DNA of 36,000 bases, taken from positions 1 to 36,000 of IMG/VR virus record IMGVR_UViG_2534681759_000010. The stretch is one strand, 5' to 3'. Position 1 is the first letter of the stretch, and each line of letters begins with the position of its first letter. This DNA is from a virus (Duplodnaviria > Heunggongvirae > Uroviricota > Caudoviricetes). Under the pieces are notes generated by a model. The model worked only from the letters and a program-made list of their open reading frames with translations. It did not search any database and was not told the origin of the DNA. Made by a program: the position numbers and the translations under genes. Positions 1,675 to 20,384 of the stretch are shown in pieces.

Positions 1675-1959
1675 ATGGCTACTTTTATTACCTATGCTGT
1701 CATCATTACTATTCTGGCTGCTATCTCTGCTTATAAACTCGGAACCGAACCGAAAGAACGAGGCGAATTATTCTTAGGTGCGTTTGTTGCATTTGCTAGC
1801 CTTGCGTTAATTGTCGAAGGAATTTCTTATATTGTTGGCCTAGTTAGTATGACACTTTTTAACTTCCATCCAACTATTGCTATGCATTTGATGCTGACCG
1901 TACTTTGGGTATATTGCTTAATCGAATTTTTAACGTTTGTTTTCAAACAGACTAAATAA
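1675..1959 (+). CDS. Small integral membrane protein, 94 aa, about 3 hydrophobic helices
   Basis: Strongly hydrophobic translation, followed by two hairpin terminators. Confidence 0.55.
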   Translation: MATFITYAVIITILAAISAYKLGTEPKERGELFLGAFVAFASLALIVEGISYIVGLVSMTLFNFHPTIAMHLMLTVLWVYCLIEFLTFVFKQTK

Positions 1960-2118
1960 TATTGTAATCTGCCATTTCTCCTTATGTGGTTTTAACAGGG
2001 AATTTTCGAAAGAGAGTTCCCGATTAAAAGCCATAAAACACATTCAGTACCGTGTTTTCATAGTCAGTGATCTATACAACATAAAAACATAACAAGTATA
2101 GATTGAGTATTAATCCTC

Positions 2119-2145
2119 CCGCCCCGAAGGGGGCGGTTATTTTTC
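2119..2145 (+). terminator. Rho-independent terminator
   Basis: CCGCCCC-GAAG-GGGGCGG hairpin followed by TTATTTTTC. Confidence 0.6.
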
Positions 2146-2221
2146 TGGCTTTACTAGATAATGTAGCATTATATTCATTATAACCTCATCTTTGTTGTGC
2201 AAACCTAACCTAAACTTACTA

Positions 2222-2247
2222 GGGACTCTTCGGAGTCCCTTTTTTTA
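2222..2247. terminator. Rho-independent terminator, possibly bidirectional
   Basis: GGGACTC-TTCG-GAGTCCC hairpin followed by TTTTTTT; abuts the stop codon of minus-strand gene 2245..3186. Confidence 0.5.
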
Positions 2248-3186
2248 TTGGCAGTAAGAAAAGTTAGTACCGTACATTTCATCATGAAGCATTGCAGCAT
2301 TGCGTTTCTGTTCTTCTTCCTCATCTTCTACATCACTAGAAAAATGAGATTTGCCCTTAAAAGAACGAAGTAATTGCAGTGCAGCCATCGGATCACGCAT
2401 CACATCGATTTTCACTTCTACTTCATCATTTGCGGCCTCATCAGCCGCGTTTTCAACTACTGCCACCGGAGCAACTTCTTTAGCTTTCAGTTCTTCAATC
2501 TCAGCTTTCTGTGCTTCGATAATCTGGTCTTTTTCTTCCAATGCAGCTTTCAGTTCTGCGATCTGTGCTTCCAGTGCAGCAAAGCGATCTTCAACAACCG
2601 GAGAAACAGCATTCACCTGTGCTTCCAGTTCCAGAAATGCTTCGCAAGATTCAATACGTTCTTTCTCTTCACCTTCATAAGCAACCAGTTCTACAACTTC
2701 TTTTTCGGTAGCGTGGCTGTTAAAGAAAACAGCAAAGTAAGGATTGCCGGATTTAGTGAAGTTCAGTTTAGCTTTTCCGGTAACTTCTTTACGACGACCG
2801 AAGGTGATCTGGCAATCAGCGGTATCCTGAAAATCCATGTTAGGAGCGGAAACGATAGCAGTATCACCAGCAATAACCAGGTGGAACAGTTCAGAAGAGT
2901 TCTTAACGGTAAAAGTAACGATGTGGTCTACTGCAACGTCTTTAGCAGGTTTAACGCGGTCGATTGCTTTACGAATGCCGTTAGGCAGTTTACCGTCAAC
3001 ACCAAAGCCAGCCGCGATCAGTGCTTCACGATGTGCTTTAAAGCCAGCGAAAGCGGATTTCTGCTGCGCAAAGGAAACATGAGCAACAACTTTCGGCTGA
3101 ATCTTCTTGTTTGCTTCGGTGCCAAATTTGATAACTGCTTTAGCGTTGGTTACTTCGTTAGTGAAAAAGTTAGCGGAAAATAACAT
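2245..3186 (-). CDS. Hypothetical protein, 313 aa, with central coiled coil (AALEAQIAELKAALEEKDQIIEAQKAEIEELKAKE) and acidic C-terminus
   Basis: Long intact ORF; the + strand ORFs across it are low-complexity shadows. No family assigned. Confidence 0.55.
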   Translation of the reverse strand: MLFSANFFTNEVTNAKAVIKFGTEANKKIQPKVVAHVSFAQQKSAFAGFKAHREALIAAGFGVDGKLPNGIRKAIDRVKPAKDVAVDHIVTFTVKNSSELFHLVIAGDTAIVSAPNMDFQDTADCQITFGRRKEVTGKAKLNFTKSGNPYFAVFFNSHATEKEVVELVAYEGEEKERIESCEAFLELEAQVNAVSPVVEDRFAALEAQIAELKAALEEKDQIIEAQKAEIEELKAKEVAPVAVVENAADEAANDEVEVKIDVMRDPMAALQLLRSFKGKSHFSSDVEDEEEEQKRNAAMLHDEMYGTNFSYCQ

Positions 3187-3300
3187 TATAAATACTCCTG
3201 TGGAAAGTTAGTTTTAATTGTTCATTTCAAGCCTCCCTTGTTGCAGCAAAGGAGGCTTTTTCTTTTTTAAAGCCATCATATAATTCTCAGTCAAAGTTGA

Positions 3301-3483
3301 TTACCAAACGGTAGCTTCAATCTTCACTTTAATGTCATATCGTTTTAGCAGTTTATGAAAGGTTGATTTATCGATGCCCTCATTTTTAAACCACTCTTCA
3401 ATTCTCACACCCGGCGTTAACTCAAAGTAGCGTTTAGCCATTTCTAAGATGATTTCGCGAGTGAACTTAACAGGTCGTGCCAT
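3301..3483 (-). CDS. Small HTH-type DNA-binding protein, 60 aa; regulator or excisionase/RDF-like candidate
   Basis: Compact basic ORF; co-oriented with 2245..3186 and downstream of the leftward promoter at about 3905-3933. Confidence 0.45.
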   Translation of the reverse strand: MARPVKFTREIILEMAKRYFELTPGVRIEEWFKNEGIDKSTFHKLLKRYDIKVKIEATVW

Positions 3484-3904
3484 CTCGAATCCTCCTACAA
3501 TGTGGATTAATGATTTCTTAAAAAAGAGCGTTAACCGCTCACTATTATTTATATGGGGATTGTATTTTATTTTTCAACCCCTCACATTTATCTCTTATAT
3601 ATGTATTTACAACAGAGATATGTTAAAATGTTATTCAGATGTTATCAGACGTGTTAAATGTGTTAAACCACAGCACGAATTGCTAAAGCGAAGAACACGA
3701 TTTAACCAAATTGATGTATATTCAATCAATTTAGAAAAAGGCATAGCACTTTTTGCTAAAGCGGTGAGCATTAATTGAGCTATGAATTGTAAAGATTTGT
3801 TACAAGATTTTCTCTCAGATCCAAATCTTCACAGGCATATAACAATTTAACACGGTGATAACAAACGGAAGGAAAATCGGTAAATTTTCACTTTCAATAC
3901 AAAT

Positions 3905-3933
3905 ATTATACCACATTTTTCTCCAATTGTCAA
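3905..3933 (-). promoter_or_regulatory. Leftward sigma70 promoter: TTGACA, 17-nt spacer, TATAAT on the minus strand
   Basis: + strand ATTATA near 3905-3910 and TTGTCAA near 3927-3933 are the reverse complements of TATAAT and TTGACAA with a 17-nt spacer. Confidence 0.45.
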
Positions 3934-4000
3934 GTGTAGCACCGATCCTACACAGTGTCAACAAAGGATTTTCAAACCTACACTAGCCCTACACTATGAA

Positions 4001-4195
4001 AATTGCCCCTGAATTTTTGCCCCTGAACCAAAATCCCCTAGATTCCACATCCAATTTTTGCCCCTGAAACCCACTATTTTTGCCCCTGAAATTCTGGGAA
4101 ACAGTGATTTTGCCCCTCATTTTTGCCCCTGAAATGCCAATAATTGCCCCTGAAAATCTAATTTTTGCCCCTGAAATTTGCCCCCCCGAAAAGGA
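4001..4195. repeat. Array of about 8-9 direct copies of (T)TTTGCCCCTGAA(A) with irregular spacing
   Basis: Copies read at approximately 4001, 4013, 4054, 4076, 4107 (degenerate), 4121, 4142, 4160 and 4176 (degenerate). The same core forms the palindromic stem of the terminator at about 6494-6522. Confidence 0.65.
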
Positions 4196-4352
4196 TTGGT
4201 GAGAAAAACTCTTTATAAAACATTAACTTAGTGAGGGGCAAAAGCGGGGGATCGGGCGTGCATAGATATTATATAACACATTCGCTACGCTCATGTGTAA
4301 AACCAAAAACAACAAATAACCAAAAAGATATTAGGAGGGCGTAGCCCGACTG

Positions 4353-4650
4353 CGCGAAGCGCCAACCAATTACTTCTAGTAACAACTAATTTAAACTAGA
4401 TGATCTTAGAAGGAATTAACTAGTTTGCTCGCTCGCTTCGCTCACTCCCAAACGTCTGCGACGCCACTGCGTGGCATCGAGAATCACTTTTGAAAGGATT
4501 TTCTTAGAAAGGGATTTAATACCAGATGATAACTGATTCTAGTAAACGAACGAAGTGAGTAACAATCACTTTCTAGAAAGGTATTGGTTATCCCTTCGGG
4601 ATTGCAACCTTCGGTTGCCAAATTGCTTCCTGATTATTATTATTTCTCCA
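4353..4650 (+). ncRNA. Candidate structured non-coding RNA or leader: two tandem UUCG-tetraloop hairpins, then a U-rich tract
   Basis: No ORF; repeated CTAGAAAGG-ATT motifs; ATCCC-TTCG-GGGAT and GCAAC-CTTCG-GTTGC hairpins near 4590-4620 followed by a T-rich run; bracketed by an 18/20 direct repeat. Strand and ends uncertain. Confidence 0.25.
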
Positions 4651-4824
4651 AAAGAAAGATTCTTATATTCTAAAGATACTTCTTCGTTTTGATGATGGTT
4701 TAATCAAATTATGAAGGAGGGCTTTGCCCGACTGAATACAATCACCTTTCATAATAACAAGAATTTTCTCTTTATAAATAATAGTGAACTTACTTGATTC
4801 ACTTTCTTTTAGAGGATTTCCACT

Positions 4825-5292
4825 ATGAACCATAAACTGACTACCACTACTCCTTTTATCCTTCTGGGTCTGGATGCAGATAGCTTTCACAATGACAAGT
4901 TAATGAAGATGTTCCGTGAACGTGGTTATAACATCCTTTACAATACCGATGAATCCCATTTCTCTAGTGCATGGTATGTTTTCGGAAGAAATAAACGTCC
5001 TACCATCGTTGTTAACTGCTTCACCGATGAAGACCGCCTGAAATACCAGAACATTCCAGCAATCATTGTTCGTGATGACCTGCCTTTCGAAGTCCGTGAT
5101 TATGACATTGATTTAGGTAGCTTCGTTACTGTCTATGAACTGGATGAAGCCATGTTTAACTACGGCAAAGAAACCGCTCAGGAAGCCCCAGAACACGATG
5201 AACAAGACGAAGATGACGACGACTACACACCAATCTGTTTCTCTTCTCACGGTGGCTTCTACGGTTACGATGAAGGCTTAGATATGCTGTAA
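4825..5292 (+). CDS. Hypothetical acidic protein, 155 aa (C-terminal DEQDEDDDDY)
   Basis: GAGGA RBS about 8 nt upstream; first rightward gene after the non-coding block. Confidence 0.55.
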   Translation: MNHKLTTTTPFILLGLDADSFHNDKLMKMFRERGYNILYNTDESHFSSAWYVFGRNKRPTIVVNCFTDEDRLKYQNIPAIIVRDDLPFEVRDYDIDLGSFVTVYELDEAMFNYGKETAQEAPEHDEQDEDDDDYTPICFSSHGGFYGYDEGLDML

Positions 5293-5314
5293 TTTAGGTC
5301 AACCCTTTGGCGTC

Positions 5315-5356
5315 TTGTCAAGGGGTATTGACAAAAATTTCTGACTTTTTTATGAT
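5315..5356 (+). promoter_or_regulatory. Rightward sigma70 promoter (TTGACA, 17-nt spacer, TATGAT) overlapped by a perfect palindrome TTGTCAA-ggggta-TTGACAA
   Basis: Read directly from sequence; a second TTGACA follows about 35 bp downstream. Confidence 0.5.
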
Positions 5357-5414
5357 TATCGCACTTGACAACTTTGAACCTATTTGACCTAGATTTGTAA
5401 AGAGGATGTTAATT

Positions 5415-5561
5415 ATGAACACTACTAAGAAAATTGATGGACGTAAAAACCCGAACCGCAAACCGTGGACCCCAAACCTGAATTTCTCAATGGTTGACTT
5501 CCATGAACGCCAGCGTCGCATTCAAGAAGAAATTGATCGCGCGATTGCTGAATCTAAATGA
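5415..5561 (+). CDS. Small basic protein, 48 aa (MNTTKKIDGRKNPNRKPWTPNLNFSMVDFHERQRRIQEEIDRAIAESK)
   Basis: Below the ORF-track size cut-off; GAGG RBS upstream; immediately downstream of the promoter. Confidence 0.35.
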   Translation: MNTTKKIDGRKNPNRKPWTPNLNFSMVDFHERQRRIQEEIDRAIAESK

Positions 5562-5662
5562 GATAAAAACTTCTTATAAATAAAATTGTTCCGCGCGCCG
5601 TTGGCGTGTGGACAGTTAAAACAGGAGAATCAATCACTAAACCGTTTAAGGGGAATTTAATT

Positions 5663-6487
5663 ATGAATACTGTTACTGCTATGAATACTGCTAAAACTGC
5701 TTCCGTGTCTCTGGTTGTTGATAACACCAAACCGCTGACCATGTCTTCTCGTCAGATCGCTGAATTTACCGATAAGAAGCACAGCAATGTAATGCGCGAT
5801 ATTCGCGAAATGTACGAATCTTTAGGTATTATCGATCAGCTCAAAACTGAATTTGTCGAGAGAATCAATAACTTAGGATATGCTGTTAAAGAACCAGTAT
5901 ATCACTTAGACGAAGAAATGACGCTGACTCTTGTCACTGGTTACGATGTTAAGCGTCGAATGGTTGTTATTCAGGAATGGAAGCGACTGAAAGAAGAAAA
6001 TGAAAAACTGCGTCAGGAACGTTTAGCTGCTAACCCGTATGCAGACTTTGAAGAAACAGACTGGATCGAACTGGCATTAAAGAAAACTCGCGAAAATAAA
6101 AAGCTGATTGAACTTCATGTTCGCAAATCCGTAGATAGCCATTCAATGACCCGTCTGTTAGGCGCTAAAAAGGGCGCTACGAAGGTTAAAGAAGCACTGA
6201 CGGCCTTGCGTACTGCTGGCTACATTGAGCGCGTCTACGATGAAAATAACAAGCCGTGTGGGTATGTTGCTAATGACTCTTCTCTGTCTTTCTGCCGCAT
6301 GAATGCTCACTACCAACTTGAGTTTACTGTTGATGTTCTTCCGGTGCTGGTTGAATTGGGCGTTTTGGAAGAAGAACAGAAAGCAACTCTTAAACTACCG
6401 CAGCCAAATAACACTATTCTGATTCAAAACAAAGCGGCTGAACGTCTCCGCCAGAATGTTGGATCACTGGAACACTTCGGACTGTAA
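5663..6487 (+). CDS. Rha-family phage regulatory protein
   Basis: N-terminal LTMSSRQIAEFTDKKHSNVMRDIREM fits the Rha signature; start taken at the internal ATG with an AGGGG RBS (track start 5606 + 57). Confidence 0.65.
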   Translation: MNTVTAMNTAKTASVSLVVDNTKPLTMSSRQIAEFTDKKHSNVMRDIREMYESLGIIDQLKTEFVERINNLGYAVKEPVYHLDEEMTLTLVTGYDVKRRMVVIQEWKRLKEENEKLRQERLAANPYADFEETDWIELALKKTRENKKLIELHVRKSVDSHSMTRLLGAKKGATKVKEALTALRTAGYIERVYDENNKPCGYVANDSSLSFCRMNAHYQLEFTVDVLPVLVELGVLEEEQKATLKLPQPNNTILIQNKAAERLRQNVGSLEHFGL

Positions 6488-6493
6488 TAATTT

Positions 6494-6522
6494 TTGCCCC
6501 TGAAATTCAGGGGCTTTTTTTG
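6494..6522 (+). terminator. Strong rho-independent terminator
   Basis: GCCCCTGA-AAT-TCAGGGGC hairpin followed by TTTTTTT. Confidence 0.7.
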
Positions 6523-6532
6523 TTTTCTATAG

Positions 6533-6566
6533 GTATAAAAAAAGGCCAACCCCGAAGGATTGGCCT
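6533..6566 (-). terminator. Terminator for minus-strand gene 6573..6803
   Basis: GGCCAA...TTGGCC hairpin with a CCCGAAGG centre; U-run on the minus strand. Confidence 0.45.
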
Positions 6567-6572
6567 AGAGAA

Positions 6573-6803
6573 TCAAATTCCTGTTGCTTCTACCATTTCA
6601 CCATCAACCTGAACAAAGAATTTCAAATCAACTTTATGGAGTGATTTGTAGAATTGAGCAATTGAAATACCATGTTCACTCAATACTTGTTCTTTTTCGG
6701 CTTTACCTTTCGGTGCTTGATAGTACGCTTTTACAATCGCTGCCAGTTGTTCACGATCAAAACGGCAAGGACGACCGCGAGTAGCTTTAGTAGTCATAGT
6801 CAT
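6573..6803 (-). CDS. Stand-alone Hin/resolvase-type HTH DNA-binding protein, 76 aa
   Basis: TRGRPCRFDREQLAAIVKAYYQ...HGISIAQFYKSL follows the GRP-x-HTH pattern of Hin-family C-terminal domains; no catalytic domain. Confidence 0.5.
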   Translation of the reverse strand: MTMTTKATRGRPCRFDREQLAAIVKAYYQAPKGKAEKEQVLSEHGISIAQFYKSLHKVDLKFFVQVDGEMVEATGI

Positions 6804-6831
6804 TTCTCCAAATTAAAGTGAATGTTCACCT

Positions 6832-7437
6832 TTATTTAGAGGACTTACATTTTATCGGAAAAAGTTCTCCATCGTCAATACTCATAAAGAACTCTGCCTT
6901 AATCCCGTACTTCTTCAACCGTGAATAGTATGTCCCCCGACTTATATCAACCTTGCGAAGCACTTCAAAGAACCCTTTAGGATCGTTGTAATAGTGGCTA
7001 TAACGCACGTTAGCGAGTTCAACGAATAGTTCCCTTGTATCACCATAGCCTTTCTTGAAAGCCTCGTTACGATAGCGTGTAATGGCATGATTCAATCTCT
7101 TCTGTTTCAACACTTCCCTGATCGGTGTCCACTGCAACCGATAGATAGGACCGTCATCAATGCGATAATAACGCTTGATATCAAAATCAAACCAATCTCG
7201 GACTCTCCGAAACTCTGTATGTGATGTGCGATGCTTCTTAAAGAAGTTATGGATATCTGTATACCCATGATCGCGATACAACTCGATTAAAATTTGCTTC
7301 GCTTCCTCACGACTAAAGCCGGATGTTGTGTAATCAGTCTTCTTGTGATGGTGCTTAACTGGCAAACGATATTCATGATCGGTACAACAAGACAAGGCTA
7401 ATTCTACTTCATCTCTTTGTTGCTGATTAATTAGCAT
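6832..7437 (-). CDS. Hypothetical basic protein, 201 aa, with C-terminal HTH ([15 protein letters not shown])
   Basis: Intact ORF co-oriented with 6573..6803; HTH-like C-terminus; N-terminal domain unassigned. Confidence 0.5.
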
Positions 7438-7524
7438 ACAACCCCCTTAAATCTTAATACCCGTATTTATCAAAATATCAACAATTTAATAAATACCTTC
7501 ATATTTCGTAATGAGGGTAATTAC

Positions 7525-9429
7525 ATGAAACTAATTTCTAATAAGGCCAAATTAAAAAAGATTCTCAGAAATGCAGCCAAATATATTACGCCACCGCCTA
7601 AACTCCTTCCTTCTGAATGGTGCGAAGCGAATATGGTGCTGGTAGATGGTCCTCAAGCGGGGGATAAAGTTAAATTGCTGTCATTCCAGAAAGGCATGAT
7701 TGATGCTCCTTTCCTTGAGAATAAGAAAAAGTATGTACTGATGACCAGTGCGCAGATCGGAAAAACTACCATCCTAAACGGTATCCTGTTTAACCAGATG
7801 GCTAACGATCCATGCAATATGATTATCGGACAATCAACCGCTAAAGAAATGTCTCAATATCTCGCGGGTAAGATCCGACCGTCTATCGAAGCATGTGATG
7901 CATTGAAAGACGTGGTTACAGACAAGAATGATCGTAATGCGGTTAACAACAATAACCAACTCCAGTTAAAAACGAATCACTTCCTGTACATGGTATCGCT
8001 TACCAGTCCATCAACCCTACGCGGTAAGACCGCAAAGGTTGGATTGCTTGACGAAATCGATGCTGCCACAGCCTCAGAAGAAGGTGATCCGGTGGCACTG
8101 GCTGCTAACCGTTTAACTACCTTTGGCGATGAAGGTCGATTAGTCGTATCCAGTACCCCGACCAGTAAGCTGGGAAGCATTAACCAGCAATGGTTATCAA
8201 ACGATATGCGTATGTTTTTTGTTCCGTGTCCTCATTGCGGGGAACACCAGGTGATCGAGTGGGAAAACGTTCAATTTGAATGGCGTAACATTGATGGTAA
8301 GAACTTACCCGATCCTGATACCGCTCGTTATATTTGCCCCCACTGTAAGAACGCATGGACCGAAGGGGAACGAATCAGGGCAGTAGCACAAGGCGAGTGG
8401 AGAGCAACCCGTGAAAGTGAGGTAGCAGGATTCTGGATTAGCCGTCTGTATTCACCTTTCAGCACGATTCGCGCTTGTGTGGTTGATTTTAGTCATGCGT
8501 GGCAATCCTTTGATTTACAATCATTTTATAACACCGTGTTAGGCAAGGTATACGACGATCAGGACACGGCAGTAGAAGCAAATGAACTGGAACAACTCAA
8601 AACAGATGTTTCTATCGAGAATATCCCTGATGACGTGATTTTCTTGTGTGCGGGTACTGACCAGCAATTAGATCGCGCAGAAACTACGATCATGGGCGTG
8701 GCAAAGGATAAAATTTATATTCTGGATCACCGCAGCTTTTACGATCATAACTGTGAACGATATGAATCCCCTGTATGGGATAGATTAATCAACTTCCATA
8801 AAACCAAATTTACTACTGTATCGGGTGATCGTGTTCCTATGCTCGCCAGCTTCCTTGATACATCGAACGGTCGATTCACTCAAGCTGGATACCGTATTTG
8901 CGGCAAGTGGAAGAACTTACACGCTATCAAAGGTAGTTCTGCTGGTAACGCTCCGATCATTCCGGTTAAACCTACCCGCACAGGTGGTCATGAATTGCTT
9001 ATGTTGGGTGTTAACGTGGGTAAAACTGCATTTCGTGAAATGTTGGCTAGGAACCTGAAAGATAATCCTCATATTGGCTTAGAAATATCAGACACCGTTC
9101 CTGATGATTATCTCGATCAGCTTTTAAGTGAATCTGTCAAGCGTACTACTACTGGCGTGAGATGGGTAAAGAACCCAGGCGTTAGGAACGAGGCGCTCGA
9201 CTGCGCCGTGTATGCTACAGCGGCTTCTCGCTACGTCCTTTCAAAAATGTCATGGGATAAACTCATTGCAATGAAAGACAGCTTAAACCGTGTTGTCGAA
9301 GAACCCGTAGAAGCTCCTAAATCGCAATCTGACGAGCAAATCGAAGAAAATAAGCCAATCACACGACCACAACGTAAAAACATCGCCAGACGTCCAAATA
9401 GAGGCCGTAGCTGGGTAACATCGTTCTAA
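7525..9429 (+). CDS. Terminase large subunit, lambda GpA family
   Basis: PCPHCGEHQ vs lambda ACPHCGEEQ; YSPFST vs YSPFTT; [12 protein letters not shown] vs AGIDSQLDRYEM; [15 protein letters not shown] vs RRNEALDCFVYALAA. Confidence 0.85.
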
Positions 9430-9501
9430 TAACTCGCCGTCCTTCGGGGCGGCTTACTCCTAAATATTGTTAATCCAATAACAATTAAATAAGGGGTAAT
9501 T

Positions 9502-9996
9502 ATGAGTTTAGAACTAATTCCCTTAGTAATTCGTAAAGGCGAAAAAATCACGCTGGCGAATGAAGAGGGTGTAACAATTCAGGTAGGTAATAGCAAAGAC
9601 ATTGTCTATCAGGTCGATGATGCACCGGAAAATCACGAGATTAAAACGTTAGACTTTCCAGAAGGGAAGATGACCATTGTTATTACTCTTGATGAAGAAC
9701 TGGTATCCATGCAGGAATTAACCGTATTGCCAGTATTCGCCAAACAATCCAAAAAAGAATATCTGCGGGAAACTATCACCTTAATCGAGCAAGTTATTTT
9801 CGCCCGTTTATATGGGGACGAAGCCGCATTATCTGCAATGACAATAAAAGGGAACTCATTCGCTTATGAGTCATTGGGTGTTCTCCAGCAATTGAAGACT
9901 GATTATGAACGTCAGTTATCTAAATTAATTCAAGCCGAACGACGTAAACAGGGAATTAGCCCGATTAAAAATATCAAATTACGTCTTACGCGATAA
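9502..9996 (+). CDS. Hypothetical head protein, 164 aa, at the lambda W position
   Basis: Position between terminase and portal; weak C-terminal resemblance to gpW. Confidence 0.35.
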   Translation: MSLELIPLVIRKGEKITLANEEGVTIQVGNSKDIVYQVDDAPENHEIKTLDFPEGKMTIVITLDEELVSMQELTVLPVFAKQSKKEYLRETITLIEQVIFARLYGDEAALSAMTIKGNSFAYESLGVLQQLKTDYERQLSKLIQAERRKQGISPIKNIKLRLTR

Positions 9997-10006
9997 GGGG
10001 TAAATC

Positions 10007-11518
10007 ATGTTTAATCTTTTTCGACGCAAAAAGGCGGTAGAAACTCCAGTTAAAACTAATCACCGCCAGCAACAACCAAAAATTTTCATCGACAAATCTA
10101 TAGAAAGATACCAGAAATCTCTGGCGACTCGTAGTTTAGGACTGGTTGGTGATCGTATTGATGGATCACTTCAACAAGACACCATTACAGGAACCTTCAA
10201 TAAGGCTCTCAAATCGAACGGTAAGCGCCTTTATGATCAGGGTCGTACTCTGGCCTTAAACACTTCCGTTGGCAGTCGCTACACGCAATACATCACCGAT
10301 ATGGTGGTCGGTACTGGACTAGATCCGAAGCCGTCAATCGTTAAATCAAATGGCAAACTTGATAGCGCACTGAATAAGCAGATCGAGAATGCTTTCTGGA
10401 AGTGGGCGCAGAACGCTAAACGCTTCTCTCGTAACGGTCGCTTTAACTTCCGTGAACTGTTGGTAATGGCTGAACGTGAGCGCGTTATGGGTGGTGAATG
10501 CTTTATCGTTTTAACCAAAGAAAACAATAAGTTAAATGTTTCTATCCTGTCTGCTGATAAATGCGACTGGTCGCTAAACCGTGAAGTAAGCAAAGACCGT
10601 GCGATATATCAAGGTGTGGAGTATGACGTAGAGACGATGAAGCCCGTAGCATACTGGTTTCGTAAAATCAATCTACTGACTCAGACTTACACAGGTGATA
10701 ACTATCGTGTCGAGGCTTCGCAAGTATGTCATTATTATCAACCACTTGCGGCTGAATCTCTGCGTGGTGTGACTGACTTCCTGCCAGTGATTAAGGATAT
10801 CGCACATCAAGACGCATTCCGCGAAGCTGTATTGGTCCAGAAACGAATTTCAGCTAGTAGCATGGCGTTCATCGAGCGTCCGAAAGATTCTGGTGACGAT
10901 TTTGATACTGGTGAAGATGATGAACAATATCAAGCGCCGGAAGTTATTCACGATTTCGCGCCAGGTACTATTCAGGAATTACCGGAAGGGGCAACGATCA
11001 AGAGTATTCAATCCACGCAAAGCGGCGATGATTTCAATTCCTTTAACGCTGGTATGTTCACGAGTATAGCGATGGGTCTTGGCGTGTTCAATCAGGGCTT
11101 AACTGGCGATACTAGCCAAATAAATTACAGCGCCGCACGCTACGGCGAATTACTTCAAAGAACGCGCGTTAAAGCACTGCAAAACAAATTGATTGAAACA
11201 GTGGTATTGCCAATTTTCGAAGCATATCTACGCCATTATTCCGCGCGTGGTATTGTTCCGATTCGTATTACTGCAATTCCGCATATTATCGACAACACTA
11301 CTATTATCCGTCCGCGTTTTGAATCCGTCGATCCTATTAAAGACGTAAACGCCGAGATTGCTTTAATTGATAAAGGACTTAAATCACGTACTGCCGTTAT
11401 ATTAGAACGTGGTGATGATCCTGAAAAAGTATTCTCAGAGATTCAAGCCGAAAAGAGCGCACTAAATATTATCGTTAATGGCGAGGGTGAAGAAAAAAAT
11501 TCCCCAGCCGATCCCTAA
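10007..11518 (+). CDS. Portal protein, lambda gpB type
   Basis: 503 aa directly after the terminase; AMGLGVFNQGLTGDTSQINYSAARYG resembles lambda B AAGLGVSYEQLSRNYAQMSYSTARAS. Confidence 0.8.
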   Translation: MFNLFRRKKAVETPVKTNHRQQQPKIFIDKSIERYQKSLATRSLGLVGDRIDGSLQQDTITGTFNKALKSNGKRLYDQGRTLALNTSVGSRYTQYITDMVVGTGLDPKPSIVKSNGKLDSALNKQIENAFWKWAQNAKRFSRNGRFNFRELLVMAERERVMGGECFIVLTKENNKLNVSILSADKCDWSLNREVSKDRAIYQGVEYDVETMKPVAYWFRKINLLTQTYTGDNYRVEASQVCHYYQPLAAESLRGVTDFLPVIKDIAHQDAFREAVLVQKRISASSMAFIERPKDSGDDFDTGEDDEQYQAPEVIHDFAPGTIQELPEGATIKSIQSTQSGDDFNSFNAGMFTSIAMGLGVFNQGLTGDTSQINYSAARYGELLQRTRVKALQNKLIETVVLPIFEAYLRHYSARGIVPIRITAIPHIIDNTTIIRPRFESVDPIKDVNAEIALIDKGLKSRTAVILERGDDPEKVFSEIQAEKSALNIIVNGEGEEKNSPADP

Positions 11519-11564
11519 TAACCAACGGGGGGCGCAATGCCCCCAATTAATTAAAGGTGATTAA

Positions 11565-13577
11565 ATGCTTAAATTTCGCCGCGATCTTAACGGTTACGGT
11601 GGAGTTATTAACGAAGGGCATAACGATCAATACGAATTTGAAATTGCTTTCTCAAGTACACTGCCTTATCAGCGCCAATTTTGGGATGAGCAAAATCAAG
11701 AAATGGTGGTATTAGATGAAATTCTGGTACATACACCGGAAGCGGTTGATCTGTCTCGTCTGAATAATAACGCTCCGTTGCTGTTCAATCATAATTTCGA
11801 TAATCATATTGGTGTCGTTTGTAACGCTCGAATCGATGCGGATAACGTAGGTCGTGCTCTGGTTAAATTCTCTAAGCATGGCACTTTGGCTAATGATATT
11901 CGTAATAAAGTTATTGAAGGTACGATGGAAAAAATTTCTGTCGGCTATGACATTAAAGAATATCACATCGATTACGCTAAATCGCAACTCATTGTTTCTA
12001 AATGGATTCCGCACGAAATTTCATTTGTGACGGTCCCGGCGGACGATTCGGTCGGTTTAAATCGCTCTCTAAATACTATCACAGTTAATTTGGGGGCTAA
12101 ACGCGATATGACTAAAGAACAAATCGAAGAAATCAAAGAAGAACAAGAATCCGCTCAGGTTGAAGAAACTCCGGTAGAAGAAAATAAAGAACCGGAAGTT
12201 GAAGAAACTCAAGAGCGCCAAGTTGAAGAGAATGAAGAAAATGAAAATCTCGAAGACGGAAAAGACGCTGAACATCCTGAAAGTGTTGATGATGATAGTT
12301 CAACTGTTCGGGAAACAGAAGAAGTAAAAGAAGAACGTGAAGCCGCTCCGGTTGAAGAAGAAAAAACCGAGGAAGTGGCTGAACGTTCCGAAGAAGACGA
12401 ATTAGAAATCCGAGCAATCGCTCGTGAGTTAAATATTAACGAAGACGATGAAGAATTTAAACGCGCATTGGCAAATAAAGAAATCACGCCGGAAGCATTC
12501 CGCACTAAGGCACTAAATAAAATCGCTACTGCTCAACGTAACAACGAACAAATTAATAAGGAACAAATCATGGAAAAAACTTTCGATCTTAATAACGTAA
12601 TCCGCTCCCTGGTAGATGGCGACGTGCTCGGCGCTAACGAAGCTGAATATTCCGCTATGGCTGCTACTGCAACTATGCAGCGTGGTCGTGCTGCTCGTGG
12701 TGGCTCTGTATTCGTTCCGGCTGCTGCTATGCGTGCTGCTTCCGAAGGTAACACCAAAGCTACTCTGACTGCTGTTACTGATGAAAAACTGCTGACTGAA
12801 TCCTACATCGAAATGCTGCTTCCACAGTCTGTTCTGGGTCGTCTGGGTGTGACTGTTCTGTCTGGTCTGAATAGCCCGATTGCAGTACCAAAAATGACTG
12901 CTTCCAGCGTCGAAGCCTTTGGTTTTGTTGATGAAAATGGAAGTGCCCCCGAGTCGAAGGCTACCTTTGCAAACGTGAAAATGTCTCCTAAGACGTTTGC
13001 TGGTGGGAACCCGATCAGCAGAGCTAGCATTAAGCAAGTTCCCGGCATCGCTACCCTGATCACTGATCACATTAACAAAGCTGTTCGGATCAAACTGGAA
13101 CAACTGATTCTGTCTGACAAAGATAATACTCGTGGTCCGGCTGGTCTGGTTAAGCAACTGGTAGACGGTGGTCGCGTTACTAAGAAAGCCGCTTTTAGCT
13201 ACAAAGACTTCCTGAAAGAAATTGCAGCACTGACCGACGCTGGCGTTCCGGCACAGTCCATCAAGTTTGCAATGAGCGGTGCAACTTCTGCTGAACTGGA
13301 ATCTACCCTGAAAGATAACGGCGTTTCCGGTTATATCATCGAAAACGGCAAACTGGCTGGTTACGATGTAGTTACTTCTGGCGTTATTCCGGCAGACCAC
13401 ATCGTTCTGGGTGACTTCTCCGGTATCATGATCGGTGAATGGGGTGGTCTGGAACTGGATATGGACGACACCACTTACCGCGCACAGTCTGCTATCGTTC
13501 CGCGTATCTGGGTAGACCTGGACTTCACCGTAGTTCAGCCGGAAGCTCTGAAAGTTCTTCACATCTCCGCTGAATGA
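11565..13577 (+). CDS. Fusion polyprotein: HK97-type (S78) prohead protease, acidic scaffold-like linker, HK97-fold major capsid protein
   Basis: N-terminal LLFNHN...HEISFVTVPADDS fits S78 motifs; an E/D-rich stretch of about 150 aa; C-terminal half ends like an HK97-fold capsid protein (GDFSGIMIGEWGGLELD...). Confidence 0.7.
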   Translation: MLKFRRDLNGYGGVINEGHNDQYEFEIAFSSTLPYQRQFWDEQNQEMVVLDEILVHTPEAVDLSRLNNNAPLLFNHNFDNHIGVVCNARIDADNVGRALVKFSKHGTLANDIRNKVIEGTMEKISVGYDIKEYHIDYAKSQLIVSKWIPHEISFVTVPADDSVGLNRSLNTITVNLGAKRDMTKEQIEEIKEEQESAQVEETPVEENKEPEVEETQERQVEENEENENLEDGKDAEHPESVDDDSSTVRETEEVKEEREAAPVEEEKTEEVAERSEEDELEIRAIARELNINEDDEEFKRALANKEITPEAFRTKALNKIATAQRNNEQINKEQIMEKTFDLNNVIRSLVDGDVLGANEAEYSAMAATATMQRGRAARGGSVFVPAAAMRAASEGNTKATLTAVTDEKLLTESYIEMLLPQSVLGRLGVTVLSGLNSPIAVPKMTASSVEAFGFVDENGSAPESKATFANVKMSPKTFAGGNPISRASIKQVPGIATLITDHINKAVRIKLEQLILSDKDNTRGPAGLVKQLVDGGRVTKKAAFSYKDFLKEIAALTDAGVPAQSIKFAMSGATSAELESTLKDNGVSGYIIENGKLAGYDVVTSGVIPADHIVLGDFSGIMIGEWGGLELDMDDTTYRAQSAIVPRIWVDLDFTVVQPEALKVLHISAE

Positions 13578-13711
13578 ACTAACGTAGAACCATCTGAACC
13601 TTCCCCCGATTTGGGGGAAGAAAATCTGATTCCATCTCAGGAAGAAGAATCTCAGACGGTTACGGCGAAAGCCACAGTTAAAAAACAACGTAAAACTAAA
13701 GAATAATAATT

Positions 13712-13740
13712 AGCCCTGCCTAACGGTGGGGCTTTTTTGT
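13712..13740 (+). terminator. Rho-independent terminator downstream of the capsid gene
   Basis: AGCCCTGCC-TAAC-GGTGGGGCT hairpin followed by TTTTTT. Confidence 0.6.
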
Positions 13741-13768
13741 ATGTAAATACTCCATAAAGGGGGTAACT

Positions 13769-14059
13769 ATGTTCAAATTATCAGAATCACAATTATCAAG
13801 AATGTTCCGAAGTGCTCCTGTATTTTCGGTGGAAGGTGGTAAATCAATTCGTGCTTATCATGAAATTACTACTACCGACGAATCAGGGGTAATGACAGAA
13901 ACAGAATTTCTATTTTGTCGTGAGGGAGACTTAAAGCAGGGTGATATTGTCATTGTAGAAAATCAGCGTTTCAAAGTTCAATACATTAAGCGCAATGGTG
14001 ACAATACAACTGATTGCTTTATTACTCTGGCAGGGGGTACACATGCTCGCTACCGTTAA
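13769..14059 (+). CDS. Putative head completion or head-tail adaptor protein, 96 aa
   Basis: AGGGGG RBS; position after the capsid gene. Confidence 0.4.
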   Translation: MFKLSESQLSRMFRSAPVFSVEGGKSIRAYHEITTTDESGVMTETEFLFCREGDLKQGDIVIVENQRFKVQYIKRNGDNTTDCFITLAGGTHARYR

Positions 14060-14474: not shown

Positions 14475-15308
14475 ATGAATATTACACAAGATAACTTAGA
14501 CATTTTCACGGGGTCACATGTTGTCGTTTCCGTGTCTGATATGGTTGATAACCAGCCGGACTTCTTCGATCCCAGCTTTAGCCCGATTGATAACGTGGCA
14601 TCATTCCCGACGATCACCGAATCCACCGAGATAGAAACTCTTGAGGAATATGATCATGATGCTACTGGTAAACTTGCCGGATACCGCAAATTAGAACCGA
14701 CTACGCTTGTTTTAAACCGTGTTATCGACGACGAACATCAAGCAATGTTGATGAAAGCGGTAGAGGATAAAACACCTTTACGCTTCCGTATGTTCTATGT
14801 TGTGAACTCCGGTTACAGTGCTGCTAACACAGGTTACTATGTGATCTATGATGCTTATGTCACATCACACAAAACCCGTGGTAGCGATAACAAAGCTGTA
14901 ACTATGGAATTTAAGATCGAACCTGATGGCGGGATTCTGGATCGCGGTATTGCAACCGAGGGTCGTCTGCTCCGTCAGGGCGATATGGGCGTTGGTGCAG
15001 GAATTAGCCCGTTCACTGGTCCTACCGATAGCGAAGTATTAGCGGGTAACCGTTTCGTAACTTATCAGGGATCGAGCGCATCTAATCCATTTAGTGCTGA
15101 TACTTCACTAATTCACGTTCAACCTAATGACGATGGTGGATGGCAATTAACTTGCACCGCTTCCGGCGCACCACGTTTACGAGTTCGCACAGTCCAGAAA
15201 GACGGTAATTCTGGATGGGTGAAAGTGTATTCCACAGAAGAAAAACCGACACCAGCCGAGATTGAAGCCGTTTCTATCCATGACCGGATCGATTTCGGTG
15301 AGTTCTAG
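14475..15308 (+). CDS. Structural protein, 277 aa; C-terminus carries a KPTPAEIEA motif shared with the tail fibre
   Basis: GGGG RBS; C-terminal EEKPTPAEIEAVS echoes DKPTPAEIGAYS inside 15384..18914. Confidence 0.45.
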   Translation: MNITQDNLDIFTGSHVVVSVSDMVDNQPDFFDPSFSPIDNVASFPTITESTEIETLEEYDHDATGKLAGYRKLEPTTLVLNRVIDDEHQAMLMKAVEDKTPLRFRMFYVVNSGYSAANTGYYVIYDAYVTSHKTRGSDNKAVTMEFKIEPDGGILDRGIATEGRLLRQGDMGVGAGISPFTGPTDSEVLAGNRFVTYQGSSASNPFSADTSLIHVQPNDDGGWQLTCTASGAPRLRVRTVQKDGNSGWVKVYSTEEKPTPAEIEAVSIHDRIDFGEF

Positions 15309-15383: not shown

Positions 15384-18300
15384 ATGCAATCAATCCAATT
15401 TAAGCGAACTAATGTAGCTGGCAAAAAGCCAACGCCGGAACAATTACAGGTCGGTGAGGTAGCAATCAACCTTAAAGACCATGTTATTTTTACCAAAGAC
15501 CGAGATCATGAAGTAGTTCAAATCTCTGTTTCTCCTGAAACTCACGCGGCACTAGAATCTAAAGTTGATGCTAACAAACAAGAACTGGATAGTACAATTG
15601 CAGTAAATGACCGCAATATTCACGCTAAAGTAGATGAAATTAAACAAACTACTGATGCAACCATCGCAGCAAATCACGCAGAAATTAACAATAAAGTTGA
15701 TGTAATTAAACGCGAAACCGACGCGACAATCGAGGCCAATAAAAATAAAGCTGCTTCCGATCTTGCTGGTGTTAAAGCTGAATTGTCGGATACCATCAAC
15801 GCTAATAAAAATGCGGCTGCTGTAGCAACTCAGGAACTGGACACCCGCATCAATAAAAAAGTTGATGATATTAAATCCCGTACCGATGCAACCATCGCAA
15901 GCAATTACAAAGCAATCAATGACAAAGTTGATTTGATTAAGGCAGAAACTGACCGCACTATCGCAGCAAATCACGCCTATGCGGAAAATCAGTTAACTGA
16001 CACCTACAATAACCTTACTGGTGTGATTGCGGCTAATAAGCAAGAGGCAGCGGATAACGTCGCAGCATTAACCCGTGATGTTGAAGCCAAAAATTCAGCA
16101 ATTCATAGCAAAGTTGACAATAACAAGTCTTACACTGATTCTGAACTGGCACGCTTAGAAAGCCGTATTGATGCAGCCGACGGATCGAGTGATGGCAAGT
16201 ACATCAAAAAACACGTAAACACTTATACTGATGGTTATTTGTTGTCTAAGACCGCAAACTATTTTGATGATCCGACCGCACGAAATCTTGATTATTTTGG
16301 TGCATTCCGCATGAATGACCTGGCGGGTCATATTGCAATGATCTTGCATGTTCCGCATCCATCTGGTGTTAATCATGCTCGTGGCTTTGAGTTCACTTAT
16401 GGGTCTAATCCGGTTCATACGGTAAGAACATACGGCTACGATGAATTGGGTAACTTGTCATATTCTCACCGCATGTATCATGAAGGCGATAAACCTACTC
16501 CGGCTGAAATTGGCGCATATTCGAAAGCAGAAATTGACCGACTGTTCCAGAAGACGCTTAATTTTGGGATCGAGGGTGGTTGGTTTAAACTAGGCACTTT
16601 GACAATGCCACAGCAACACGGTCGTAGTGCTAAGATCCGCTTAGTTGGTGGTAACGGTTATAACGTCGGGATGAATGGACAAGCCAATATTATCGAATTG
16701 GTGATTCGATGCGGCAACAATAGCCCGAAAGGTGTTGTATTCAATGCGTATTATACTATTTGGCATTATGAACAACATTTTTGCGCTATTCCAACCGATG
16801 GCGACAATTACGATCTTTACGCTTACTACGGTGCACATACAGGATTTGTTTTAGCAGAATATCAAGTTTCTTCCGGTGGTGTTTCTTTAAACCTGTTGGA
16901 TACTCCTGAATATCTGGGTGGTGAAAAACCTGTTGCAGATGAAATTTTTGATGCTCTTAACATTTCATCGTTCAATAACTTTAGCAACCGTGGAACGTTA
17001 AATTTTGCTGGAAACCATCAAGGCCAATACGACATTGAGCATATGAACGAACAACCGACAAATGCTAAAAAGATGTTGCGTCGCTTCCGTAGTTCTGCTC
17101 CTGCCACTATCTGGCACGAAAGTGTTGATGACCAAAATTATCGTCTTGCTACTGGATATACCGATGTAACCCAACAATTATTGCTTTCGGCTGTAACCGG
17201 TTTGCATATTCGTAGATTGACCATCGATGGTGGCTTGGGTTCCGGTTCTAATGCTGGTATTGATATTCGTCGAGGACCAAACGAAGCAAGCCATTTTAAT
17301 TTTATGGATTATCGCACTGGTCAAGATGTTCGTAATGGCTGGTTTGGTTTTGGTGATTTGACGACCAAAGATTTTATTTGGTGGAACGATAACGGTCAAA
17401 ACTCAATAAACTTGATCGAAAACGGTGAATTGCATATTACTGGCGGTAAAGGCCAGAAAATTGTAATGAATAGCGAAGTTGCATTATCTGAAAATGCTCG
17501 TTTGGCTGTCAGAGGCGGTAACTATGGTTTGATATTACGCAATGATGGTTCTAACTTCCATATTCTTACTACCGATTTAAAAGATTCTTTTGGTAATTGG
17601 AATAATCGCAGACCATTCAGCTATAATTTTGAGGACGGTGGACTATATTTAGGTGGCACTGAAACTGCTCGTTGTTTGCATCTGGGAATTGATGGTAGCA
17701 CTCGTCTCGAAGACAACCTTTTCTTTAAATCTGGTTCTCGTCAATCTATGGACTATATGGAACTCGTCCATTGGGGGGCAAGCAATACAGGTCGAAATAA
17801 CGTTTTAAGTCTTCGTGACTCAAAAGGATTTTTAGCCGAATTTGAACGCGTGGGGGGGACTAACGGCGTTAAAACCAGATTCTTTGGTGAAACCTTCACT
17901 GACGGTACATTATACCTAAATCAGATGAATAATAGCTCTGAACGATTCTCTATCAACAATTGGGGAAATTCAGAAGTTGGTCGCGCGGCAGTAATGGAAA
18001 TCGGCGATTCAAAAGGTTATCACTTCTATACTGAACGTAGGACAGATAACAGTTTGATGTTTGATGTTGCTGGCGCTTTTACTGTGCATGGATCTAGCGG
18101 GATCACTATCAAAAACTCTGATGGTGCTCGTCACATCTGGTTTAGAGATAACAGCGAATCGGAAAAGGCTGTTATTTGGGCGACCGATGAAGGTATTTTA
18201 CATATTCGCAATAACCACGGTGGACCATTTAGTCATCACTTTAAGGGTGCAATGATTCAACTGGAAGGGCGTGTTCCTTATGCCGCAGATCAAGGACTTA

Positions 18301-18914
18301 TCCGTGGTGAAGTTGATGGTGGTGCATATGTTGCATGGAGAGACCGCCCTGCTGGTTTGTTGGTTGACTGCCAGAAAAGTGTTGACAGTGCTCATGCTGT
18401 TTGGAAAGCGGTTGATTGGGGGCGTCAATATATCGCTGCTATGGACGTTCACTGTCCGGGTGATGGTAATAATACCGCAGCCGCTGTTCTTCATGTTCAG
18501 GCTGCCGATTATCAATTCCATGCAAGCGGAGAATTTCATGCCACTGGCAACGGAAACTTTAACGATGTGTATATTCGTTCTGACCGTCGCCTTAAAGACA
18601 ATATAGAAGATTATACCGGAAATGCGTTAAGTTTGATTGGTAAGCTGAAAGTGAAAACTTACGATAAAGTTAAATCTCTTAAGGACCGTGAAATTATAGG
18701 CCATGAGATTGGCATTATCGCACAGGATTTACAAGAAATATTACCAGAAGCTGTGAAATCTTCAAAAGTTGGCAATCTTGATAATCCAGACGATGTTCTG
18801 ACAATTTCTAACTCGGCAGTGAACGCGCTGTTAATTAAAGCGATTCAAGAAATGAGCGAAGAAAATAAAATCCTTCGTGAACGTCTTGCTGCAATTGAGG
18901 CTAAATTAGGGTAA
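15384..18914 (+). CDS. Tail fibre with N-terminal repeat region and C-terminal S74-type intramolecular chaperone domain
   Basis: About 19-aa repeats (KVDxIKxxTDATIAAN) in the first 250 residues; C-terminal NDVYIRSDRRLKDNIE...IIAQDLQEILPEAV resembles the self-cleaving chaperone domains of T5 pb1 and K1F endosialidase. Confidence 0.8.
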   Translation: MQSIQFKRTNVAGKKPTPEQLQVGEVAINLKDHVIFTKDRDHEVVQISVSPETHAALESKVDANKQELDSTIAVNDRNIHAKVDEIKQTTDATIAANHAEINNKVDVIKRETDATIEANKNKAASDLAGVKAELSDTINANKNAAAVATQELDTRINKKVDDIKSRTDATIASNYKAINDKVDLIKAETDRTIAANHAYAENQLTDTYNNLTGVIAANKQEAADNVAALTRDVEAKNSAIHSKVDNNKSYTDSELARLESRIDAADGSSDGKYIKKHVNTYTDGYLLSKTANYFDDPTARNLDYFGAFRMNDLAGHIAMILHVPHPSGVNHARGFEFTYGSNPVHTVRTYGYDELGNLSYSHRMYHEGDKPTPAEIGAYSKAEIDRLFQKTLNFGIEGGWFKLGTLTMPQQHGRSAKIRLVGGNGYNVGMNGQANIIELVIRCGNNSPKGVVFNAYYTIWHYEQHFCAIPTDGDNYDLYAYYGAHTGFVLAEYQVSSGGVSLNLLDTPEYLGGEKPVADEIFDALNISSFNNFSNRGTLNFAGNHQGQYDIEHMNEQPTNAKKMLRRFRSSAPATIWHESVDDQNYRLATGYTDVTQQLLLSAVTGLHIRRLTIDGGLGSGSNAGIDIRRGPNEASHFNFMDYRTGQDVRNGWFGFGDLTTKDFIWWNDNGQNSINLIENGELHITGGKGQKIVMNSEVALSENARLAVRGGNYGLILRNDGSNFHILTTDLKDSFGNWNNRRPFSYNFEDGGLYLGGTETARCLHLGIDGSTRLEDNLFFKSGSRQSMDYMELVHWGASNTGRNNVLSLRDSKGFLAEFERVGGTNGVKTRFFGETFTDGTLYLNQMNNSSERFSINNWGNSEVGRAAVMEIGDSKGYHFYTERRTDNSLMFDVAGAFTVHGSSGITIKNSDGARHIWFRDNSESEKAVIWATDEGILHIRNNHGGPFSHHFKGAMIQLEGRVPYAADQGLIRGEVDGGAYVAWRDRPAGLLVDCQKSVDSAHAVWKAVDWGRQYIAAMDVHCPGDGNNTAAAVLHVQAADYQFHASGEFHATGNGNFNDVYIRSDRRLKDNIEDYTGNALSLIGKLKVKTYDKVKSLKDREIIGHEIGIIAQDLQEILPEAVKSSKVGNLDNPDDVLTISNSAVNALLIKAIQEMSEENKILRERLAAIEAKLG

Positions 18915-19913: not shown

Positions 19914-20384
19914 ATGACTACTAAATTTGATATTTTTTCTGGTGGCCTCGTTGGTCTGTTTCTGCATGAAGAAGTAACTAACACCGATCTTGACAGTGAA
20001 AGCTATCTGGAAATTCCAGAATGTGCGGCTTTCCCGGAAACTGGTGTAGAACGTTCTACTATCGATGTTCCTAACTTCGGTGGTCCGTATAACCGTAAGC
20101 TGGTTGGTCGTATGTCTGTACCGGATATCGAACTTTCGATCAACTACATGCCGGGTAACGAAGTACACGAAAAACTGATTAAAGCAACCGAAGACGGTAA
20201 GCGCGTACAGCTTAAAATTGCTTACTACATCGACGCTACGAAAAAATCTGGTGTGCACATCGCTTATAACGGCTTCCTGTCTAAAACTACCATGACTGGT
20301 GGTGAGGATGCTGTAGTAGGCCGTACCTTCACCTTTGTAGTAGATGGTGCTCCGGTTAAACAAGCTGTTTTCCAGAAAGTCTAA
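19914..20384 (+). CDS. Major tail tube protein
   Basis: 156 aa immediately upstream of the chaperone pair and tape measure; followed by a strong terminator, as expected for an attenuated highly expressed gene. Confidence 0.6.
   Translation: MTTKFDIFSGGLVGLFLHEEVTNTDLDSESYLEIPECAAFPETGVERSTIDVPNFGGPYNRKLVGRMSVPDIELSINYMPGNEVHEKLIKATEDGKRVQLKIAYYIDATKKSGVHIAYNGFLSKTTMTGGEDAVVGRTFTFVVDGAPVKQAVFQKV

Follow-up and report, generated by a model that had tools for sequence, protein, structure and literature searches.

The 36,000-nt window analyzed here (positions 1 to 36,000 of the IMG/VR virus record IMGVR_UViG_2534681759_000010) is DNA of an E. coli/Shigella prophage, and it contains an open reading frame (ORF) that joins a prohead protease, an acidic linker and a major capsid protein in one chain. 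This ORF begins with an ATG at position 11565 of the plus strand, extends to position 13577 and encodes 670 amino acids, the numbering of which is used throughout. It is preceded by genes for a gpA-type large terminase (7525-9429), a small head-tail joining-like protein (9502-9996) and a lambda-type portal (10007-11518), while head-tail and tail genes lie 3′ of it; the ORF serves head assembly in the prophage of a temperate E. coli siphovirus. Its residues 40-162 match the Pfam family Peptidase_S78 (PF04586, caudovirus prohead serine protease) with an E-value of 6.8e-10 and a score of 39.8 bits against a cut-off of 21. The score obtained with the stricter equivalog TIGR01543 was 33.9 bits, which is under the cut-off of 59. 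The protease part belongs to S78 at the family level, without membership at the equivalog level of TIGR01543. Residues 412-666 match the Pfam family Phage_capsid (PF05065; E=1.4e-25, 90.7 bits versus a cut-off of 24.2), and residues 412-663 match the solved capsid protein of roseophage R4C (8gta_A; E=1.3e-27), the structure of which (PDB 8gta) has an HK97-like fold. The region between these two domains is rich in aspartate and glutamate (D/E), which account for 36% of the 150 residues from 186 to 335, and for 43.5% of the acidic core from 186 to 300, where the net charge is -37. The domain matches and residue counts uphold the three-part reading given in a preliminary description of this DNA, which had proposed an S78 protease, an acidic scaffold-like linker and an HK97-fold capsid, and they confirm the E/D-rich stretch of about 150 residues noted there. 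We regard the presence of the protease-scaffold-capsid architecture in one ORF as practically certain.

The AlphaFold2 model of the ORF was unusable as a whole, with a mean predicted local distance difference test (pLDDT) score of 31, and it was built on a shallow alignment of 18 sequences that were 93-97% identical. The pLDDT values above 70 were confined to residues ~272-323, which were modeled as helical. The location of this predicted helical segment after a disordered acidic stretch fits a scaffold-like part of the protein. In the protease part, His76 and Ser125 align with His65 and Ser114 of HK97 gp4 (MAFFT alignment, with the Ser region also covered by BLASTP), and both residues are invariant across six divergent fusions. 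His65 and Ser114 are the catalytic residues of gp4. The conservation of the residues aligned with them makes the self-processing of the fusion protein plausible, and the protease part looks active. Additionally, the first residue of the chain in the 8gta structure corresponds to about residue 401 of the ORF, which suggests that a cleavage site could be located somewhere before this position.

The preliminary description had named one finding that would overturn its reading, which was a sequencing frameshift separating the protease and capsid genes. The comparison with related sequences excludes this scenario. The best 120 database homologs, which come from E. coli and Shigella, are 93-97% identical and 666-670 residues long, and both Pfam domains are present in 120/120 of them. 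At the DNA level, relatives with 87-94% identity were found in 55 of 5,426 complete E. coli genomes (about 1%), a 94% identical prophage being carried, for example, by E. coli UTAK-14 (NZ_CP168998), and 44/5,426 match at least 80% of the stretch 11400-13800. The ORF is intact, with a length of 666-693 amino acids, in 12/12 relatives read at the DNA level, a set that includes two with a different protease module (L003 and L004) and one, the Escherichia phage DCP80, with 43% protein identity. A scan of viral contigs in IMG/VR returned more than 581 relatives, and the best 80 of these loci, with identities of 24-94%, match residues ~25-662 within one frame, across both domains. A full-length PHROG profile also exists for the family. 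Hence, it is extremely improbable that the ORF is an artefact of a sequencing or assembly frameshift that merged separate protease and capsid genes.

The fusion singled out in the preliminary description is not unusual, because it belongs to an architecture that is already catalogued. The ORF matches PHROG 617 ('major head protein', 626 positions) over positions 28-621 with an E-value of 7e-92, PHROG 4523 bears the name 'major head and protease protein', and NCBIfam lists NF045541 as 'prohead protease/major capsid protein fusion protein' (scaf_prot_MCP2). The match to NF045541 was limited to the N-terminal part of the ORF (residues 22-343) and scored 127.9 bits, with a cut-off of 525, which makes the ORF a relative of this family that stands outside its membership. 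The same full-length arrangement was detected using tblastn in phiHAP-1, VP882, the RcCronus group, PPpW-3, ECO1230-10 and ep3, as well as in Arya, Mica and Xanthomonas FoX phages, with end-to-end identities of 25-43%. The copy in Murka is annotated as 'major capsid protein and protease', while the RefSeq label of the E. coli copies is only 'phage major capsid protein'. The triple fusion of this type has also been described in the literature, it is represented among Pfam domain pairs and in phage annotation vocabularies, and the phages for which it is catalogued number in the hundreds; in actinobacteriophages, fusion phams occur in clusters AU, AW, AM, BI, DJ, CC and EE. Thus, the fusion by itself is ordinary, and the window contains a new copy of a known architecture. 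What the ORF has in common with the known fusion phages is an S78 protease, a scaffold region and an HK97-fold capsid in one ORF directly 3′ of the portal gene, while it differs from them in that its linker, with 43.5% D/E, is unusually acidic. A megablast search of the ORF against deposited phages gave no match, and the closest deposited phage protein is 43% identical. The closest deposited phage relative is DCP80 (L001, PQ671644.1), a 141-kb record classified as T4-like Straboviridae. Positions 1-13786 of this record carry a lambda-like terminase/portal/fused-capsid module, nearly all of it annotated as hypothetical, and the record may be a chimeric assembly.

The in-frame start codons of the ORF were scanned for the energy of pairing with the anti-Shine-Dalgarno sequence. 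The data showed that an in-frame ATG at codon 182 (ATG182, nt 12108), accompanied by a Shine-Dalgarno (SD) sequence, is located exactly at the junction between the protease and the linker. The pairing energy of this SD is -8.4 kcal/mol in the window, where its sequence is GGGGG, and -9.3 kcal/mol in most E. coli relatives, which have GGAGG before ATG182. The corresponding junction starts are GTG187 in L003 (-6.4 kcal/mol), GTG187 in L004 (-9.8 kcal/mol), ATG180 in DCP80 (-6.2 kcal/mol), ATG216 in ECO1230-10 (-6.0 kcal/mol) and ATG215 in Arya (-5.9 kcal/mol). For the annotated start of the window ORF at 11565 (ATG1) the value is -4.3 kcal/mol. Hence, a junction start with an SD is found in every lineage examined despite unrelated local sequences, and an energy of -5 kcal/mol is reached at just 5.3% of internal codon positions.

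Similar results were obtained in family-wide tests, which included 49 non-redundant members. The density of start codons preceded by an SD was highest 20-59 codons past the protease motif (23.5 and 15.3 per 1000 codons), compared to ~2 per 1000 codons in the other two frames and ~4 further downstream in frame. An ATG was present at the junction in 45/49 members versus 34 expected (p~1e-4), and an ATG with an SD of -5.5 kcal/mol or lower in 31/49 members versus 7.1 expected (p=7e-15). Such SD sequences accompanied 47% of the junction ATGs, but only 7% of other internal ATGs, with a local baseline over all codons of 13%. The explanation that the SD-like motifs merely reflect the composition of a Glu-rich linker was rejected on the basis of this 13% local baseline compared to 47%, and of the off-frame controls. 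The mRNA around the junction ATGs is also poorly structured; the mean folding energy in 51-nt windows was -5.4 kcal/mol, while it was -12.2 kcal/mol ORF-wide and -12.0 kcal/mol further down the linker (paired p~1e-10 to 1e-11). In the window ORF the SD is built of rare codons, which are TTG, used for 4 of the 49 Leu residues, and GGG, used for 3 of the 42 Gly residues, and the SD of the relatives uses GAG, which encodes 6 of the 77 Glu residues.

The comparison of codon usage, measured as the frequency of optimal codons (Fop) on the basis of E. coli optimal codons, showed a step within the ORF. The Fop value is 0.51 for the protease part, 0.70 for the linker and 0.80 for the capsid part, in which some stretches reach 0.9-0.97. 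The background is represented by the terminase (0.51) and portal (0.54) genes, and the likely tail tube gene (19914-20384) has a value of 0.76. The difference between the protease part and the remainder of the ORF is significant (p=3.5e-8), and the step is observed in 12/12 relatives, including L003 and L004, with their different protease module, and DCP80, at 43% identity. When codon bias was measured in a host-independent manner as synonymous codon usage order (SCUO), with equal-length subsampling, it was higher in the capsid than in the protease part in 40/49 family members (Wilcoxon p=1e-9). As a control, HK97 was analyzed, where the protease gp4, encoded by a separate gene, has a background Fop of 0.57, while the delta domain and the mature capsid, which are translated together, have values of 0.72 and 0.65, even though the delta domain is disposable. 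The idea that only the retained capsid part is codon-optimized, the rest being discarded, was rejected, because in HK97 the bias of the delta domain matches that of the mature capsid. If one chain were always made, ribosomes would pass over the protease and capsid parts with equal frequency. The ORF carries sequence signatures both of internal initiation and of unequal translation.

A single change-point fit to the window ORF alone placed the change at residue 516, which was misleading, because it was caused by a patch of low bias at residues 441-500. This patch (12885-13065) has an Fop of 0.50, compared to 0.66-0.88 in relatives, and its DNA identity to all relatives is lowered to 67-91%. The patch thus resembles a segment that entered the capsid gene by recombination.

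The boundary of the protease module is visible in L003 (E. coli OkiPb01713), where another protease module precedes a linker and capsid like those of the window, and the identity to the window resumes at nt 12123, which is 5 codons past ATG182. The protease modules of L003 and L004 have ~50% DNA identity to that of the window. L003 also contains an extra 340-aa gene between the portal and the fusion, and a gene of a GIY-YIG nuclease before the tail fibre gene (1351-2373 and 6323-7360 in L003 coordinates), and its mosaicism may be associated with a homing endonuclease.

The junction start with its SD, the sharp codon-bias step at the same place and the nearby boundary of the protease module all suggest nested expression, in which far more scaffold-capsid than protease would be made. 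It seems moderately likely that two nested products are translated from the ORF, both in its frame. With a similar degree of confidence, we propose that the fusion family as a whole consists of nested gene pairs, in which the scaffold-capsid short form would be the main product and the full-length form a minor protease tether. In the preliminary description, fusing the three head-assembly functions was thought to fix their stoichiometry. This is probably wrong, as indicated indirectly by the conserved junction start with its SD, the codon-bias step and the module exchange 5 codons from ATG182. With nested expression, the stoichiometry would probably be set by two initiation sites instead of being 1:1:1.

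A different explanation is that the 670-aa chain is the only product, an obligatory polyprotein in which each subunit carries one protease and one scaffold (1:1:1) and which matures by autoproteolysis, while the junction ATG with its SD is a relic or a coincidence. The uninterrupted ORF is kept in all relatives, such genes are annotated in the literature and databases as single fusion proteins, and HK97-type capsid proteins already bear their scaffold at 1:1, all of which agree with such a polyprotein. The internal start is not mentioned in the available descriptions of fusion genes, and no report of two products from a triple fusion was found in the literature searched, the coverage of which was incomplete; the papers on Stx-phage Sp5, R4C, XM1, Avs-1, cf-PICI and CBASS contain nothing on triple fusions or their processing. 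On the other hand, a single polyprotein leaves unexplained the enrichment of junction ATGs with an SD (31 versus 7.1 expected), the unstructured mRNA at the junction and the rare-codon make-up of the SD. It also does not explain why codon bias in the protease part stays at background, given the full bias seen in the HK97 delta domain, which is translated together with its capsid. Hence, this explanation is possible, but we give it a rather low probability.

Several observations weigh against nested expression. The case for the internal start is built entirely on sequence and statistics. The SD of the window, GGGGG, includes one G-U pair and is separated from ATG182 by a long spacing of 11 nt, and the local-structure test is non-discriminating for the window ORF alone, because its whole linker is A-rich. 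Among the 49 members, a junction ATG is absent in 4, and an ATG with an SD of at most -5.5 kcal/mol is absent in 18. The codon-bias step is weak in Jilinvirus-type fusions (ECO1230-10 and Arya), the position of the change point differs among lineages from residue ~203 to ~345, and the step could result in part from the mosaic ancestry of the protease module. In principle, the SD and ATG could also be left over from a capsid gene that was once separate; their retention across members at 24-40% identity argues against neutral remnants that simply escaped decay.

Another candidate for an internal start, which could be used in addition to or instead of ATG182, is ATG336 (nt 12570). Translation from this codon would yield a 335-aa, 35.3-kDa capsid protein devoid of the acidic scaffold, which is compatible with the nested expression proposed above. 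This ATG is preceded at a spacing of 7 nt by AAGGA (-6.2 kcal/mol) in an A-rich context, and in the close E. coli clade two haplotypes that differ in their encoded residues (NKEQIM and IKDSKM) both retain the AAGGA. An ATG with an SD is present no more than 15 codons 5′ of the same motif in L004 (ATG354, -5.6 kcal/mol) and DCP80 (ATG321, -5.6 kcal/mol), and the Fop rises again from 0.70 in the linker to 0.82 in the capsid (p=0.04). However, the residue aligned with Met336 in L004 and DCP80 is Leu (CTG/CTC), so that the start is conserved only in the close clade. There is also no family-wide enrichment of starts with an SD at this position (about 6 versus 3-4 per 1000 codons), Jilinvirus-type fusions are without such a start, and a capsid protein lacking its scaffold domain is expected to assemble poorly. 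The use of ATG336 is thus unlikely, and it was downgraded as the main internal start because of the Leu in divergent relatives and the lack of family-wide enrichment.

The comparison with HK97 shows how the proposed short form would relate to a system with two genes. The proteases belong to the same family and have aligned His and Ser residues, the capsids belong to the same family, and in both phages the scaffold is located N-terminal to the capsid. The proposed short form, residues 182-670, is laid out like gp5, and both systems combine background codon bias in the protease with high bias in the scaffold and capsid. The difference is that HK97 encodes gp4 and gp5 in two genes that differ in frame (3348-4025 and 4028-5185), while the protease frame in the window continues into the scaffold-capsid part without a stop. 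As shown by the alignment, gp4 also has a C-terminal tail of ~60 amino acids without a counterpart in the window ORF. This tail reportedly targets gp4 into the prohead.

Nested genes of a protease and a scaffold have precedents in lambda C/Nu3 and in HSV-1 UL26/UL26.5, and for gp17/gp17.5 of the archaeal Haloferax virus HFTV1 the nested products were shown by ribosome profiling (Ribo-seq) and mass spectrometry. In these three systems the long form consists of protease and scaffold, and the abundant short form arises from an in-frame start just past the protease. At the sequence level the window ORF is similar, as it has an in-frame start with a ribosome-binding signal 3′ of the protease domain, and the codon bias, which is higher past this start, also fits the scheme. 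On the other hand, their major capsid protein is encoded by a separate gene, while the window ORF includes the capsid domain, and the proposed short form would be scaffold and capsid instead of scaffold alone. The lambda protease belongs to another family. If the nesting is real, the window gene is a variant of the nested protease/scaffold scheme outside the described set. The polyprotein model of the preliminary description finds its closest parallel in gpO of phage P2, where protease and scaffold are likewise parts of one self-processing polypeptide, described as made only at full length. However, gpO does not contain a capsid protein, and the signals in the window argue for an extra internal start.

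From these signatures, we infer a scheme of expression in vivo that covers initiation at the internal site, the relative amounts of the two forms, their co-assembly and the pattern of cleavage. Ribosomes initiating at 11565, which has a weak SD, would yield small amounts of a 74-kDa long form, with the protease attached covalently to a scaffold-capsid subunit. Those initiating at ATG182, with its strong SD, would make the major 53-kDa scaffold-capsid short form, which would be the equivalent of HK97 gp5, with its delta domain and capsid. The two forms could co-assemble on the portal via their identical scaffold-capsid parts, and in this way a few subunits would bring the protease into the procapsid, and the tether would do the work of the C-terminal tail by which free HK97 gp4 is targeted and which the window ORF lacks. 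The protease would next cut off both itself and the scaffold, so that, by analogy with HK97, a mature capsid protein of roughly 270-300 amino acids would remain. The features of the ORF and its flanks are collected in Table 1.

Table 1. Features of the protease-capsid fusion ORF and its flanking sequences in the window.
Feature	Position	Strand	Basis
Full-length ORF, 670 aa, 73.8 kDa: protease-acidic linker/scaffold-major capsid; proposed minor long form	11565..13577	+	
Weak Shine-Dalgarno AAAGGTG of the full-length ORF, anti-SD duplex -4.3 kcal/mol	11552..11558	+	
Prohead serine protease module, aa 1-181; Fop 0.51, equal to phage background	11565..12107	+	
His76 codon, aligned with HK97 gp4 His65	11790..11792	+	
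Ser125 codon, aligned with HK97 gp4 Ser114	11937..11939	+	
Internal Shine-Dalgarno GGGGG (GGAGG in most E. coli relatives), 11 nt 5′ of ATG182	12092..12096	+	
Scaffold-capsid short form (489 aa, 53.2 kDa), proposed product of a nested gene starting in frame at ATG182	12108..13577	+	inferred from sequence
Acidic low-complexity linker, aa 186-300; many indels among relatives	12120..12464	+	
Predicted alpha-helical scaffold-like segment, aa ~272-337	12378..12575	+	AlphaFold2
Second, weaker candidate internal start: AAGGA (12558-12562) and ATG336 (12570-12572)	12558..12572	+	
HK97-fold major capsid domain, aa 412-666; Fop ~0.8-0.97 outside the mosaic patch, aa ~441-500	12798..13562	+	
Terminator-like hairpin with T-run, 3′ of the capsid gene and its 3′ extension	13712..13733	+	

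Between the stop codon of the portal gene and the weak SD of the fusion ORF there is a GC-rich hairpin (11526-11545; GGGGGG-CGCAAU-GCCCCC), the flanking sequence of which is conserved in relatives. The fold of the 96 nt around it is unremarkable overall (z=-1.06). This hairpin might damp translation or transcription into the long form.

On the other side of the gene, the capsid ORF ends with a TGA stop codon, beyond which the frame is open for 42 codons further (TNVEPSEPSPDLGEENLIPSQEEESQTVTAKATVKKQRKTKE; window 13575-13709), up to a TAATAA just 5′ of the terminator hairpin. Both the TGA stop and the extension are shared by 11 E. coli relatives; the indels within it are all multiples of three (+2, +3 and -14 codons). 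The ratio of nonsynonymous to synonymous polymorphism (pN/pS) in the extension is 0.59 in the capsid frame, compared to 0.98 and 1.37 in the other two frames, and no convincing start codon of its own was found for 13575-13709. The sequence could encode a readthrough C-terminal extension of the capsid protein, but the case is ambiguous, because the capsid gene of L004 is divergent and ends in TAG, and the same extension peptide is encoded there in the -1 frame with respect to it.

Two paralogs in the window match PHROG 158 'major tail protein', one at 14475-15308 (277 aa, Fop 0.55) and the other at 19914-20384 (156 aa, Fop 0.76). Between them lie a tail fibre gene of 1176 aa (15384-18914) and a number of small ORFs. 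Duplication of the major tail protein has likewise been reported for Arthrobacter cluster AU, as well as other clusters, together with the capsid-protease fusion. A codon bias as high as that of the capsid (Fop 0.77) is also found in a 313-aa ORF on the minus strand (2245-3186) that is without a Pfam or PHROG match, and which may be a highly expressed gene in the early or accessory region of the prophage. At the right end of the prophage, a gene of a CapR homology domain protein (31131-31724, minus strand; E=1.2e-5) adjoins that of a large serine recombinase-type integrase (33311-35005, minus strand).

If the internal start is used, two ribosome-binding sites would tune the number of protease copies per procapsid. 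In that case, the full-length form would deliver the protease by means of a covalent link, in parallel to the solutions of herpesviruses and lambda, and the logic of lambda C/Nu3 and UL26/UL26.5 would be extended through the capsid gene itself. Thousands of annotations, which here read 'phage major capsid protein', would miss a gene, and a large family would need correcting. This E. coli prophage would also offer a simple system for studying how the protease dosage is set in capsid assembly.

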